From a virus (Duplodnaviria > Heunggongvirae > Uroviricota > Caudoviricetes), in IMG/VR virus record IMGVR_UViG_2529292716_000008: DNA of 10,137 nucleotides. One strand, given 5' to 3'. The notes beneath the pieces are model-generated. The model had not been told where the DNA came from and did not search any database. It saw only the letters and a list, made by a program, of their open reading frames with translations. A program made the translations under genes and the position numbers. Below are positions 2,636 to 6,358 of this stretch, piece by piece; the first letter of the stretch is position 1; every line of letters begins with the position of its first letter.

Positions 2636-2662
2636 AGGGGAGCATATGACACATAAAACAAA

Positions 2663-2682
2663 GGCGACCTGGGGCGGTCGCC
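2663..2682. terminator. GC-rich hairpin between convergent transcription units (putative bidirectional terminator)
   Basis: GGCGACC (2663-2669) / GGTCGCC (2676-2682) stem with a 6-nt loop. On the minus strand it is followed by TTTGTTTTAT (good T-tract); on the plus strand by AGTTTGG (weak). Sits just after the alpA stop (2635) and downstream of the minus-strand unit. Confidence 0.45.
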
Positions 2683-2746
2683 AGTTTGGAAACACTAAAC
2701 ATAAGCATGTCAATGATAGCCGCTATCAGGCTGGTGGGCAATGCTA

Positions 2747-2923
2747 TCAGTCTGTTTCAGTGCGTTGCCATAACTGCGAAGCTCTCTCCTTTGATGAGTA
2801 TTCTTTAAGGTACTTCTCAAGGGCAAAAGAACACGGCGCGAATCGTTCTGATTCATGCTCTTTCTTTCTGCGTCGTCTTTTTCGTGCAGGTGATGTTTTT
2901 TTGGTTGATTCTTCGTTGGTCAT
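2747..2923 (-). CDS. Possible small basic protein (58 aa), very tentative
   Basis: Minus-strand ORF translated by hand: MTNEESTKKTSPARKRRRRKKEHESERFAPCSFALEKYLKEYSSKERASQLWQRTETD. It lies between the minus-strand regulator gene and the hairpin terminator. There is no convincing SD, and the region is purine-rich on the minus strand, which produces K/R/E-rich ORFs by chance. Below the 60-aa cutoff of the ORF track. Confidence 0.2.
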   Translation of the reverse strand: MTNEESTKKTSPARKRRRRKKEHESERFAPCSFALEKYLKEYSSKERASQLWQRTETD

Positions 2924-2980
2924 TGTGTGCGCCTGTAAAGCAATGCGCCGGAGTTCCTCACACCACGGCGCTGATAGTGA

Positions 2981-3286
2981 TTATTCTGATTCTTTGGCCT
3001 TGCGGCGCTGGAGTTCTTCGCGTGCAACGGTGATAAGCTGCCCGATTTCCTCCGCTGCCTTGATGCCGATTTGTTCGACATTAGCTAGGGCATCCAGTGA
3101 AGACACAAGGGGATTTTCTCCACTTCCTTCTGCCTGGCGCCTGGCGATCTCACCGCGTACAGCCGTAACTATAAAATTCGCTTTAGTTTCCCCTGGCTGT
3201 AGGGATGCCTCAATGCCACTCACTACTTCATGTGGAAATCTGGCATTCAGTTGCTGTGACTTATTGTTAACAGAACTCCTGGACAT
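2981..3286 (-). CDS. Small DNA-binding regulator, possibly ribbon-helix-helix type (candidate island repressor)
   Basis: 101 aa from the ATG at 3286 (MSRSSVNNKSQQLNARFPHEVVSGIEASLQPGETKANFIVTAVRGEIARRQ...), preceded by a strong SD (GGAGGTG, plus-strand complement at 3293-3299). The N-terminus has a beta-strand / helix / loop / helix pattern compatible with an RHH fold. Divergently oriented from the downstream + operon, with repeated operator-like sites in the shared intergenic region. Fold assignment is inference only. Confidence 0.55.
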   Translation of the reverse strand: MSRSSVNNKSQQLNARFPHEVVSGIEASLQPGETKANFIVTAVRGEIARRQAEGSGENPLVSSLDALANVEQIGIKAAEEIGQLITVAREELQRRKAKESE

Positions 3287-3329
3287 GTTTGCACCTCCCA
3301 TTAATAACGGGATGCAGTGTAATACAAAA

Positions 3330-3384
3330 GTGAATACCAAAAAAGACTTGAAATGGTATTCACCTAAATGTAATGTGAATACCA
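3330..3384. promoter_or_regulatory. Three copies of a 10-bp operator-like site GTGAATACCA (direct, inverted, direct) in a divergent promoter region
   Basis: GTGAATACCA at 3330-3339, its reverse complement TGGTATTCAC at 3354-3363, and GTGAATACCA at 3375-3384. Centre-to-centre spacing is 24 and 21 bp. Located between the minus-strand regulator start (3286) and the first + operon gene (3487). Confidence 0.55.
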
Positions 3385-3421
3385 CAAGTGCTGATACATG
3401 CAATTCAGCAATTGAAACGAC

Positions 3422-3458
3422 GAAGCCCCGCAAGTGTCGTTACCACTCGCAGGGCTTC
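3422..3458 (+). other. Imperfect hairpin in the leader of the + operon
   Basis: GAAGCCC (3422-3428) pairs with GGGCTTC (3452-3458). An inner CGCAAGTG / CACTCGCA near-complement extends the stem. Ends ~30 nt upstream of the ATG at 3487. No T-tract, so not a classic terminator. Confidence 0.3.
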
Positions 3459-3486
3459 TAACCAACAACGTAAACGAGGAGCCGTT

Positions 3487-3684
3487 ATGGTTGCCGTAAA
3501 TCATATACCACACCTTGTACACACACAAACGGCCTTTGTGTGGCGTTTTCTGGCCCTGAGTGCCGGAGAATCTCAAATCATCCACGTAACCGCCTGGACG
3601 GAACGCGAAGCGCGTAACCGTTGCCCGTCAGGTTGTGTTGCTGTATTCGCCGCCCGTATTCGTCAGGAGGTGTGCCATGCCTGA
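3487..3684 (+). CDS. Small hypothetical protein (65 aa); faint resemblance to Icd-like small proteins of P4-like islands (unverified)
   Basis: ATG at 3487 preceded by GAGGAG (3476-3481, 5-nt spacer). Protein MVAVNHIPHLVHTQTAFVWRFLALSAGESQIIHVTAWTEREARNRCPSGCVAVFAARIRQEVCHA. First gene of the operon leading to the primase. The Icd-like resemblance is from memory of the family and needs a search. Confidence 0.5.
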   Translation: MVAVNHIPHLVHTQTAFVWRFLALSAGESQIIHVTAWTEREARNRCPSGCVAVFAARIRQEVCHA

Positions 3685-3997
3685 CATGACCAATTACCAG
3701 TACCTGATTAATCCGCATTTTAACTGTGAGCATGATATTGCTAAAAAGGTTTATTCCGCTGCGGATGGGGCTACTGACAATATATCAATGGCTGTTGCGT
3801 CAATTGGTAGCCTGATGTGGCATGCGTCAGAAAATGAGGAATATGACGAAAAGGCTATGCGCATTGACATGGGTAATATTGGCTTGTTACTGGCAATGCT
3901 TGGGCAGTTTGATATTTCGTTACGGTGCACCATTGAAAATGCCACAGATGCATTAAATGCCATAGAGAAAGCGAATACTGATTCAAATCTGAGATAA
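3677..3997 (+). CDS. Hypothetical acidic protein (106 aa)
   Basis: ATG at 3677 preceded by AGGAGG (3665-3670, 6-nt spacer). Overlaps the upstream gene's stop by 8 nt (translational coupling). Protein MPDMTNYQYLINPHFNCEHDIAKKVYSAADGATDNISMAVASIGSLMWHASENEEYDEKAMRIDMGN... No motif I can recognise. Confidence 0.55.
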   Translation: MPDMTNYQYLINPHFNCEHDIAKKVYSAADGATDNISMAVASIGSLMWHASENEEYDEKAMRIDMGNIGLLLAMLGQFDISLRCTIENATDALNAIEKANTDSNLR

Positions 3998-4003
3998 ATA
4001 ATC

Positions 4004-4303
4004 ATGAGAACGTATTTATCTGGCTTGACTGCCAGCGGTTATGCACACCCCAAAATTATCCCCGGCGCTATTTATCTGGATAAGAACGGTAACAGAGTAA
4101 CGGTAAAAGAACTGATGTTTGACCGTGTGTATTTTATTCGTGATGGCTATTCATTTCATAGTTCGCTGAACGTGGAGATCTTTATTAGCAGATTCAGGCG
4201 GGAAATCCCGCTTTCCAGAAATAACCATGTGTCATGTATGGATGTTGATAAAAAACTACAGGAACTGAAAAACATGATTGCCGCGTGGAGAGAGCAGAAA
4301 TGA
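4004..4303 (+). CDS. Hypothetical protein (99 aa)
   Basis: ATG at 4004, 7 nt after the upstream stop. Its stop overlaps the primase start (ATGA at 4300-4303). Weak SD. Protein MRTYLSGLTASGYAHPKIIPGAIYLDKNGNRVTVKELMFDRVYFIRDGYSFHSS... No recognisable motif. Confidence 0.5.
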   Translation: MRTYLSGLTASGYAHPKIIPGAIYLDKNGNRVTVKELMFDRVYFIRDGYSFHSSLNVEIFISRFRREIPLSRNNHVSCMDVDKKLQELKNMIAAWREQK

Positions 4304-6102
4304 AAAAAGCGCCAAATTTAAAACACCAGCCGCGTGACAAAATGACGGAAGTCATCATTTTTGCGGGTAATGATGCGTGGGCACATGCGAAGCAGTGGCA
4401 GGAACAGGACGGGCGACTGGCTGGCGACAGCGTGCCTCCTGTCTGGCTTGGAGAACAACAACTTGCCGAACTGGATAAGCTGCAAATCGTACCGGACGGA
4501 CGCTATCGGGTGCGTCTCTACCAGGCGGGGTTATTGCGTCCGGGGCTTGTTAATACCATCGGGCAGAAACTGGCAGCGGCAGGTGTCAGGGATGCTGATT
4601 ATTACCCTGAAGGAATGCACAGCCAGAAACGGGAGAACTGGCGCGAATATCTGGAACGTGAACGGGCAGAGCAGGCGGAAAAGAAAAAGGTAGTTGAACT
4701 GCCTGTAAAGAAAAAAGAGCGGGTAAAAGACGATAACGCTTCATCACTGGCGCTTAACCAGATGGGAGCAAGTCAACGCGGCGAAGTTCTCCTGGCACAT
4801 TATGGCGGTGAACTGGCGATTCATGCTGACTCTGACACTGTTCACCATTACAACGGCGTTGTATGGGAGCCAGTACAGGATAAAGAATTACAGCGAGCTA
4901 TGGCACAGATTTTCATTGATGCGGAGATCAGCTATTCGCAGAACGCCATTAAATCGGCGGTCGATACCATGAAGTTAAGTTTGCCTGTAATGGGGAATAC
5001 AGCCCGTAACCTGATTGGATTCAGTAACGGGGTATTTGATACCAGAACAGGTAATTTTCGGGAGCATAACAAAAACGACTGGTTGTTAATTGCCAGTGAA
5101 TTACCTTTCAGCCCACCAGCAGAGGGGGAAACGCTGGCAACACATGCGCCGAATTTCTGGAAGTGGTTACGCCGTTCGGTGGCTGAGAATGACCGCAAGG
5201 CGGATCGCGTACTGGCTGTATTATTCATGGTGCTGGCGAACCGGTACGACTGGCAGTTATTCATTGAGGTAACAGGTCCAGGGGGAAGTGGTAAAAGCGT
5301 GATGGCGGAGATTTGCACCATGCTGGCGGGTAAGGCCAACACAGTATCGGCAAGCATGAAGGCGCTGGAAGATGCAAGGGAACGCGCGTTAGTGGTTGGC
5401 TTTTCGCTGATTATCATGCCGGATATGACCCGCTACGCTGGTGATGGGGCAGGGATTAAGGCCATTACAGGCGGTGACAAGGTGGCAATTGACCCGAAAC
5501 ACAAAGCCCCCTACTCAACGCGTATTCCGGCAGTAGTGCTGGCGGTTAACAATAACGCCATGTCATTCAGTGACCGCAGCGGGGGGATCTCACGTCGTCG
5601 GGTGATATTCAATTTTTCGGAAGTTGTACCGGAGAACGAACGCGACCCCATGCTGGCAGAAAAAATAGAAGGAGAGCTGGCGGTTGTGATTCGCCACCTG
5701 CTTACTCGTTTTTCTGACCAGGACGAAGCTAAACGCCTGCTGTATGAGCAGCAGAAATCAGAAGAAGCTCTGGTGATAAAACGCGAGGGCGATTCGCTGG
5801 TGGACTTCTGCGGCTATCTCATGTCGTCGGTAATGTGTGATGGTCTGTTAGTGGGTAATGCCGAAATTATTCCGTTCAGTCCGCGCAGGTATCTTTATCA
5901 CGCCTATCTGGCATATATGAGGGCACACGGATTCGGTAAACCTGTAACACTGACGCGCTTCGGTAAAGATATGCCGGGGGCAATGGCGGAATATGGCAGG
6001 GAGTATATGAAACGGAAAACGAAGCACGGTTTGCGTTCAAATGTGACCCTGACAGAGGATTCAGAAGACTGGATGCCATCATGTGCAATAGGTCACAAAT
6101 GA
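4300..6102 (+). CDS. P4 alpha-like replication protein: primase / SF3 (D5-type) helicase with C-terminal origin-binding region
   Basis: 600 aa from the ATG at 4300, with SD GGAGAGAG at 4287-4294. The track's GTG at 4285 is an alternative start. Walker A GPGGSGKS and a downstream ITGGDKVAIDPKHK motif are typical of the P4-family primase C-terminal / D5 helicase region. Followed immediately by TGTTCACC iterons, the P4 alpha binding sequence. Confidence 0.85.
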   Translation: MKKAPNLKHQPRDKMTEVIIFAGNDAWAHAKQWQEQDGRLAGDSVPPVWLGEQQLAELDKLQIVPDGRYRVRLYQAGLLRPGLVNTIGQKLAAAGVRDADYYPEGMHSQKRENWREYLERERAEQAEKKKVVELPVKKKERVKDDNASSLALNQMGASQRGEVLLAHYGGELAIHADSDTVHHYNGVVWEPVQDKELQRAMAQIFIDAEISYSQNAIKSAVDTMKLSLPVMGNTARNLIGFSNGVFDTRTGNFREHNKNDWLLIASELPFSPPAEGETLATHAPNFWKWLRRSVAENDRKADRVLAVLFMVLANRYDWQLFIEVTGPGGSGKSVMAEICTMLAGKANTVSASMKALEDARERALVVGFSLIIMPDMTRYAGDGAGIKAITGGDKVAIDPKHKAPYSTRIPAVVLAVNNNAMSFSDRSGGISRRRVIFNFSEVVPENERDPMLAEKIEGELAVVIRHLLTRFSDQDEAKRLLYEQQKSEEALVIKREGDSLVDFCGYLMSSVMCDGLLVGNAEIIPFSPRRYLYHAYLAYMRAHGFGKPVTLTRFGKDMPGAMAEYGREYMKRKTKHGLRSNVTLTEDSEDWMPSCAIGHK

Positions 6103-6127: not shown

Positions 6128-6358
6128 ATAACTGTTCACCACTGTTCACCCTGCAATAAATGTCTTTTATATCAGTATATTATAGGGTGAACAGTTATTT
6201 ATGAACTGTTCACCAAACTATTCACTGTTCACCTTTTTGATTCTTTATTGAGCTTTAAGGGTGAACAGTGGTGAACAGTTGGTGAATAGTTTTTGTGAAA
6301 CTGTTAACCCATTAACATCATGAATAAAAAGGGAAAATTGCAAAAGGTGAACAGGTGA
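6128..6358. repeat. Iteron cluster: about nine copies of TGTTCACC / GGTGAACA flanking an AT-rich segment; putative ori (P4 ori/crr-like)
   Basis: Direct TGTTCACC at 6133, 6143, 6207 and 6226. Inverted GGTGAACA at 6186, 6260, 6270 and 6346, plus degenerate GGTGAATA at 6281. AT-rich stretch at 6151-6185. TGTTCACC is the type I iteron of the P4 ori and crr, bound by P4 alpha. Confidence 0.75.

Follow-up and report, generated by a model that had tools for sequence, protein, structure and literature searches.

How a satellite that carries its own replication operon keeps that operon silent is the question raised by a 10,137-nucleotide (nt) stretch of viral DNA (IMG/VR record IMGVR_UViG_2529292716_000008), which is referred to at its full length as the window and belongs to a phage-inducible chromosomal island (PICI). 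Within it, a small minus-strand gene for a 101-amino-acid protein of the YlcI/YnfO family (3286-2981; ATG start, ribosome-binding site GGGAGGT six nt upstream) is transcribed away from an operon that begins with an Icd-like gene and extends to a primase gene. This divergent layout had been described in a first-pass annotation of the same DNA, and the gene with its strong ribosome-binding site bears it out. We propose that the YlcI/YnfO protein is probably a Mnt-like ribbon-helix-helix (RHH) repressor, which would act on the icd-primase operon via four operator sites in the intervening DNA.

The window contains exactly three copies of the word GTGAATACCA, located at 3330-3339 (plus strand), 3354-3363 (minus strand) and 3375-3384 (plus strand), with centre-to-centre distances of 24 and 21 base pairs (bp) or about two helical turns. 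The direct, inverted and direct arrangement of three exact 10-bp copies noted in the first-pass annotation was thus recovered. Any 10-mer present at least three times on either strand was seen in only 21 of 20,000 dinucleotide-preserving shuffles of the 200-nt intergenic region. With up to two mismatches allowed over the whole window, 10 occurrences were found against 8.4 expected, no more than chance. The repeats are real, and the proposed switch of three sites has to be extended to four: a degenerate copy, s0 (CGGGATGCAG, 3308-3317, plus strand), occupies a position at which relatives carry good copies, and its counterpart in a Yersinia locus (L019) is well kept (TGGTATTCAG). The exact copies are named s1, s2 and s3 in order of position.

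The four sites are interleaved with the elements of two divergent promoters. Site s0 adjoins the probable leftward -10 hexamer (TACACT, 3316-3321, minus strand) on its downstream side, and s1 lies in the leftward promoter spacer, just upstream of the rightward -35. The rightward promoter, P_R, is predicted to consist of a -35 at 3348-3353 (TTGAAA) and a -10 at 3371-3376 (TAATGT), both on the plus strand and 17 bp apart. Site s2, which reads TGGTATTCAC on the plus strand, fills the P_R spacer adjoining the -35, and s3 overlaps the end of the -10 as well as the predicted P_R start. P_R was assigned from conservation together with the results of a promoter scan in an E. coli locus (L016) and in CFT073, where the same rightward hexamers are the only promoter of the homologous region. 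The scan called neither divergent promoter in the window and found no promoter in a further E. coli locus (L017). In this window the inverted repeat formed by s2 and s3 also extends outward (ACTTG ... CAAGT) over 3346-3389, so the rightward -35 lies within a 44-bp palindrome.

To compare this control region, loci were gathered from E. coli genomes, a set of one genome per species, contigs encoding chosen relatives, and IMG/VR. In all, 101 loci were usable. Their intergenic regions comprise 47 distinct sequences which, with two more that were aligned by hand, make about 49; nine named genera are represented (E. coli, Yersinia, Enterobacter, Klebsiella, Photorhabdus, Xenorhabdus, Pantoea, Erwinia and Martelella), in addition to IMG/VR contigs. 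When anchored on the rightward -35, the loci align without gaps over approximately 110 bp. Most or all classes keep cTTGa as the -35, which is conserved in the aligned class representatives, with an A-tract just upstream of it, and most have a TAnnnT -10 hexamer 17-18 bp downstream. Reading by eye, a leftward-strand TAnnnT hexamer was seen about 30 bp to the left in all classes among the loci inspected (TATAAT, TATACT or TATAGT, and TACACT in the window). Four sites stand at fixed positions around these conserved promoter elements across the 101 loci, with s0 abutting the leftward -10 and s1 between the leftward -10 and the rightward -35. Within any one locus the copies are alike, although s1 is often degenerate, whereas between classes they differ; s2 and s3 are usually the best conserved copies. 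In CFT073 (L002), L004, L005, L012, L015 and L023, s2 and s3 are direct rather than inverted repeats, those of CFT073 being direct repeats of GTGGGCCACACC.

The sequence of the site word pairs one-to-one with the protein motif before a conserved R-x-P. Seven broad classes, comprising 14 distinct strand motifs, were distinguished among the approximately 49 sequences. The motifs QQLNARFP, QQINARVP and QQIGARFP have the site word TG(G/C)(T/G)(A/G)TTCAC. QLTTVRVP is found with TGTGTTTCA, QMTT(L/I)RVP with TGTATATCAC, (K/R)QISIRIP with TGTGATTCAG, Q-x-KN-x-R-x-P with GGTGTG(T/C)AT, QSLTARIP with TGTAAGnCAC, and the QALKARVP of CFT073 with TGGGCCACACC. The pairing is kept across genera: E. coli L016 and six Photorhabdus or Xenorhabdus loci have QLTTVRVP and TGTGTTTCA in common while the DNA between their sites differs, and Klebsiella L013 and E. 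coli L017 have QISIRIP and TGTGATTCAG in common. Similarly, Yersinia L019 and the metagenomic L022 retain the window's motif together with GTGAAT..CA, in spite of diverged flanks and N-terminal domains that are 66-84% identical.

Other products of the element do not follow the sites in this way. The same AlpA protein (WP_000953271.1) was found with three different site classes, and the Icd-like protein is 94-97% identical to that of the window in L015 and L016, whose sites differ. Conversely, L001 has sites identical to those of the window, yet its primase is only 47% and its 58-residue open reading frame (ORF) product 49% identical; in L017, where the sites differ, DUF4222 and orf106 are 96-97% identical. 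Hence, as judged by these comparisons, the site sequence tracks the predicted recognition residues of the YlcI/YnfO protein and not AlpA, the Icd-like protein, primase, DUF4222, orf106 or the 58-residue ORF. This is in line with the earlier suggestion that the repeats are operators of the divergent regulator, given that they lie on the -35, -10 and +1 of P_R and that their sequence follows the predicted DNA-reading strand. It also speaks against binding by AlpA or the primase (the 'alpha' protein of the first-pass annotation), an outcome that would have contradicted that suggestion.

The boundaries of the exchange can be seen in a comparison with L015. Binned identity to the window is 97-100% at 2960-3110, which encodes the C-terminal half of the protein, and again at 3470-3650 in icd, and falls to 43-80% at 3140-3470, which spans the N-terminal codons and the intergenic DNA. 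The first ~49 codons (3140-3286, minus strand), which we propose as the specificity determinant, show 50-73% identity to those of L015, L016 and L017, while the rest of the gene is 90-100% identical to that of L015. The mosaic pattern points to an exchangeable cassette made up of the protein N-terminal domain and the intergenic DNA, including the operators and a leader hairpin described below.

The protein had been thought to belong to no recognisable family. However, it matches NCBIfam NF041551 (YlcI/YnfO) with 60.3 bits against a cutoff of 30 (E 1.3e-16), residues 9-50 covering model positions 1-42 of 42, and RefSeq likewise names its homologues YlcI/YnfO. It also matches two PHROGs without assigned function. 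Its approximately 126 relatives come from hosts that include E. coli, Salmonella, Yersinia, Klebsiella, Enterobacter, Citrobacter and Serratia. In their alignment R16-x-P18 is invariant and the C-terminal half is conserved, while the stretch right before R16 is strikingly variable.

Several observations suggest that residues ~9-53 are likely to form an RHH domain. The AlphaFold monomer has a flexible N-terminus, helices at 19-28 and 35-53, and one long helix at 59-100; when the N-terminal domain was modelled in isolation, the same two helices were obtained with a predicted local distance difference test (pLDDT) score of 87-91. This model retrieves mostly RHH proteins, with low scores. The RHH antitoxin family PF07704 is matched below its cutoff by the window protein (16.4 bits against 28.3) and by 20 of 27 relatives (best E 0.0011). 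An hhalign comparison places residues 9-29 on Arc 6-26, with Q12, N14 and R16 at the base-contacting Q9, N11 and R13 of Arc; the match to Arc/Mnt has P 0.0027 and a probability of only 11%, and was made with Arc and Mnt sequences entered by hand. PDB sequence searches, run with profiles built from the whole protein or from its N-terminal domain, returned no RHH chain, Arc and Mnt being absent at E up to 10. The RHH/Arc fold guessed in the first-pass annotation is thus weakly favoured by the AlphaFold models, the low-scoring RHH matches and the alignment with Arc and Mnt.

The C-terminal helix has a 3-4 hydrophobic spacing, as read from the sequence, that would suit oligomerisation as in P22 Mnt. 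The C-terminal half (residues 58-101, 2984-3115) also weakly resembles, in the PDB sequence searches, a helix-hairpin-helix domain from Hef, an archaeal nuclease (E 0.0055; motif L-x-x-V-E-x-I-G-x-K-A-A-E-E-I, in which I73 and G74 are invariant). The PDB searches also gave a weak match of this kind to phi29 p16.7 (E 0.4). We do not claim a helix-hairpin-helix domain, because AlphaFold draws residues 59-100 as a single uninterrupted helix. The CFT073 homologue (L002 4082-4261) has only 59 residues and does not include the C-terminal helix; the RefSeq Icd-like ORF at that locus is over-long and overlaps it.

A mechanism can be outlined from this arrangement. RHH dimers of the protein would bind the four ~10-bp sites, which recur every 21-24 bp within the 200 bp that separate its gene from icd-like, with the N-terminal domain reading the DNA and the C-terminal helix probably joining dimers. 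Being two helical turns apart, the four sites would point to the same side of the double helix. Protein bound at s2 and s3 would exclude RNA polymerase from P_R and, since this promoter is predicted to drive icd-like, orf106, DUF4222 and primase, would silence the replication operon. The leftward -10 is flanked in mirror image by s0 and s1, and the protein therefore probably limits its own synthesis as well. Cassette exchange between satellites would then give rise to separate specificity, or 'immunity', classes.

Several points weigh against this proposal. The P_R of the window matches the consensus at only 8 of 12 positions and falls below the promoter-scan threshold, and no -35 of the leftward promoter could be recognised in any locus (nor was a leftward extended -10 found when one was looked for). 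The s2 and s3 copies are inverted in some classes and direct in others, so that a pseudo-symmetric half-site would be needed. The CFT073 homologue lacks the C-terminal helix by which dimers would be joined. Part of the co-variation between protein and site is simple linkage, because the N-terminal codons adjoin the operators; linkage nevertheless leaves unexplained the concerted identity of the copies within each locus and their placement on promoter elements. Full-text literature searches returned no functional study, binding or expression result for YlcI/YnfO or DUF3950. Finally, AlpA is necessary for induction of EcCICFT073 and, when over-expressed, is alone sufficient (PMC6092414), and any repression must therefore be overridable. 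One possible induction route would be AlpA-dependent transcription that reads through the weak plus-strand side of the hairpin at 2663-2682, runs antisense across the repressor operon and then enters the icd-primase operon.

The role of AlpA also lends some weight to the nearest alternative, in which binding to the four sites would serve chiefly to autoregulate the protein's gene, or to activate the weak promoter of that gene, with little control over the replication operon, and the on/off decision would be left to AlpA alone. The leftward promoter has a conserved -10 and no -35, and protein bound at s1 could help RNA polymerase there. We regard this reading as unlikely, given that s2 lies in the P_R spacer and s3 on the -10/+1 in every class, a repressing geometry, and that it is these two copies that are usually kept best. 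Far less probable still is recognition of the repeats by a different satellite product, be it AlpA, the Icd-like protein, the primase/initiator or the 58-residue basic protein. AlpA is the known activator of PICI genes, two Icd-like families carry the PHROG label 'transcriptional repressor', and the origin iterons (GGTGAACAGT) have GTGAA in common with the repeat. Nevertheless, none of these proteins follows the site classes in the identities given above, and the iteron has 4 mismatches to the 10-bp repeat, so that it was not recovered when up to two were allowed. A toxin-antitoxin-like pair, with the RHH protein as autoregulating antitoxin of the 58-residue ORF product, seems equally improbable: every PF07704 score is below cutoff, and the ORF matches no toxin family in Pfam, NCBIfam and PHROG scans (PADLOC not searched). 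The pairing fails because most loci that have this control region lack the ORF (L003-L013 and L018-L022).

A reading in which s2 and s3 act as an RNA hairpin at the 5' end of a transcript, controlling its stability or termination, can be considered since 3345-3395 folds well (z = -5.2), the s2/s3 hairpin having -16 kcal/mol. We rejected it and give it slightly less credit than the preceding two, for in the classes with direct s2/s3 repeats pairing of the arms is impossible. Moreover, the predicted P_R start is inside s3, which would leave s2 outside the rightward transcript, and s0 and s1 bear the same word. Least credible of all is that the repeats stand beside a small ORF by chance and have no regulatory role. 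Intergenic DNA rich in A+T often contains short repeats, and the count with up to two mismatches equals expectation over the window; against this stand the rarity of three exact copies in shuffled sequences and a four-site layout that recurs at fixed positions, with class-specific words, in about 49 distinct sequences. We therefore retain the Mnt-like repressor as the preferred explanation.

P22 Mnt would be the closest functional analogue. Like Mnt (and Arc), the YlcI/YnfO protein is small, with a predicted N-terminal RHH motif of the type N-x-R-[FWM]-P-x-E-V followed by what is predicted here to be an oligomerising C-terminal helix; Mnt tetramerises via its C-terminal helix. In both cases the gene is divergent from the operon that is repressed, or in our case would be repressed, and the operator, here a proposed one, overlaps the promoter that serves an early operon of the 'ant/icd' type. 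The two systems resemble each other in architecture only, as the hhalign and PDB results reveal no significant sequence homology. Mnt has one compact operator of ~17-21 bp, in contrast to four sites two helical turns apart; the Arc-like second repressor of P22 immI is absent here, and the host element is a satellite rather than a phage. The plasmid RHH repressors Omega (pSM19035) and CopG belong to different sequence families, and the Omega heptads are contiguous whereas the sites described here are 21-24 bp apart.

Among satellites, Stl/Rpr of the Gram-positive PICIs (SaPIs) is likewise transcribed leftward, divergent from the replication operon and next to int (PMC6092414). Its role of keeping the satellite quiescent is also the one proposed here. 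Stl is not an RHH protein, and it differs from YlcI/YnfO in fold and family. It is relieved by binding of a helper-phage protein, whereas the known inducer route of Gram-negative PICIs is AlpA. In E. coli K-12, the NF041551 family is represented by YlcI of DLP12 and YnfO of Qin, which are also small proteins encoded by prophages. Both are short, like the 59-residue CFT073 form, and the window protein differs from them by an additional C-terminal helix of ~45 residues.

As in lambdoid imm cassettes, a DNA-binding domain and its operators appear to be exchanged as a unit between near-identical genomes. Here, however, the cassette boundary falls inside the repressor gene, there is one regulator only, and its predicted fold is RHH rather than helix-turn-helix. 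A comparison with a CI/Cro-type switch had been drawn, which we consider too strong: no second DNA-binding gene was found at the rightward position, where the Icd-like protein remains near-identical in loci with different operators, and a CI/Cro pair was rejected because no second regulator co-varies. There is thus no sign of a Cro-like partner, and a Mnt-like repressor is the closer comparison. RNA immunity of the P4 CI or P1 C4 kind was also considered and rejected. Rfam detected no C4 or isrK-type RNA in the window, or at 3280-3720 even at E up to 10. L017 is unlike the window in this respect, with a C4 antisense RNA and its a1b1 target downstream of icd at 3803-3852 and 3920-4007.

In the PICI literature, the Gram-negative islands are said to be transcribed in one direction and to have no identified repressor, with AlpA treated as the regulator, and later papers list YlcI/YnfO only as an accessory 'prophage-associated protein'. 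Our literature searches returned no operator described for K-12 YlcI/YnfO, and no report of a helper-phage protein relieving such a repressor or of helper-independent replication upon its loss. What would be new here is a role for the uncharacterised YlcI/YnfO family and an account of how Gram-negative satellites stay silent; an RHH repressor on promoter-overlapping repeats would itself be a familiar mechanism. If the protein is a repressor, this would be the first function for the YlcI/YnfO (DUF3950) family and would supply the missing quiescence factor of Gram-negative satellites. It would furthermore account for the status of the region as a recombination hot spot and for its discrete specificity classes, and would provide a set of proteins with matching operators that could be tested or employed as orthogonal repressors. 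A broader generalisation is conceivable, although we lean against it at present: that Gram-negative PICIs, including the capsid-forming ones, carry a YlcI/YnfO master repressor, that the at least seven operator classes are satellite 'immunity types' by which several PICIs could share one cell without cross-talk, and that induction by AlpA must defeat the repressor.

The surroundings of the control region indicate the type of element. From the ORF layout and family scans, the window contains, in order, an integrase gene (1-1239), IS1, alpA (2426-2635), two small leftward ORFs, the rightward operon, an origin, ssb and capsid genes. The rightward operon is gap-free and comprises the Icd-like gene (3487-3684, plus strand; NF033153, E 5e-18), orf106, DUF4222 and a D5/P4-type primase (Pfam D5_N, DUF5906 and Pox_D5), ending at 6102. 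Many E. coli chromosomes have annotated genes in the order int - alpA - [YlcI/YnfO leftward] - Icd-like - ... - DUF4222 - primase - ssb; in strain CFT073 this is the prototype Gram-negative PICI, which adjoins roxA/pepT. Because of this recurrence, the window is assigned by gene content to the EcCICFT073-type PICIs with capsid genes. A P4-type satellite with an 'alpha' protein (a product named in the first-pass annotation) was rejected, as both gene families and gene order match the EcCICFT073 type. Control-region DNA was matched in 1,826 of 5,426 complete E. coli genomes, including the prototype EcCICFT073, and had no match in a phage collection searched by DNA.

The second gene of the leftward operon is the 58-residue basic ORF (2923-2747, minus strand; PHROG 21027, E 8e-13). 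Homologues lie downstream of ylcI in L001, L002, L015, L016, L017 and L023, and in no other of the first 23 loci. The operon is predicted to end at an intrinsic terminator (2682-2663, minus strand) that stands tail-to-tail with alpA, a hairpin with a 7-bp G+C stem of about -15 kcal/mol (z = -3.8). The adjoining tail is TTTGTTTTAT on the minus strand and only AGTTTGG on the plus strand, and on account of these tails the hairpin is expected to terminate the leftward operon well and alpA transcription poorly. Of the convergent hairpin terminator previously suggested, the leftward function is therefore upheld and that in the alpA direction is doubtful.

A conserved hairpin was found in the leader of the icd-like messenger RNA (3422-3458, plus strand), with a 15-bp imperfect stem of -19.9 kcal/mol (z = -4.4). 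Across 19 distinct homologous leaders, 82% of cells pair compared with 30-45% in slid controls, and six pairs are changed on both sides in a compensatory manner. A conserved U-N-ACCA directly follows (TAACCA, 3459-3464, in the window). The G+C-rich stem with ACCA recalls a tRNA acceptor minihelix, and processing by RNase P would be a guess. The hairpin matches no Rfam family; searches of the window at E up to 1 and of 3280-3720 at E up to 10 gave only spurious microRNA and small nucleolar RNA matches from palindromes. The Rfam 'int-alpA RNA' motif is present between int and alpA in L006, L012 and L013 and was not detectable in the window. A terminator-like hairpin at 3522-3551 (CACACAAACGGCCTTTGTGTG then GCGTTTTCTG) lies 35 nt inside the icd-like ORF. 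Its sequence is conserved in L001, L015-L017 and L023, which may simply reflect the coding sequence, and it folds no better than shuffles (z = -0.6).

Just 3' of the primase gene, at least nine iteron copies (ACTGTTCACC / GGTGAACAGT) are present in both orientations at 6130-6355, a region which is presumably the replication origin and which also produced spurious Rfam microRNA matches. The genes that come after ssb (7730-9597) are one of head-maturation protease/scaffold type and one for a major capsid protein, which suggests that the island belongs to the capsid-forming PICIs. Between int and alpA lies a complete IS1 of 768 bp (1544-2311), flanked by a 9-bp target duplication (AGCATGGTT) and ending 114 nt upstream of the alpA start codon. 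This insertion may separate alpA from its helper-responsive promoter and thereby make this copy of the island non-inducible.

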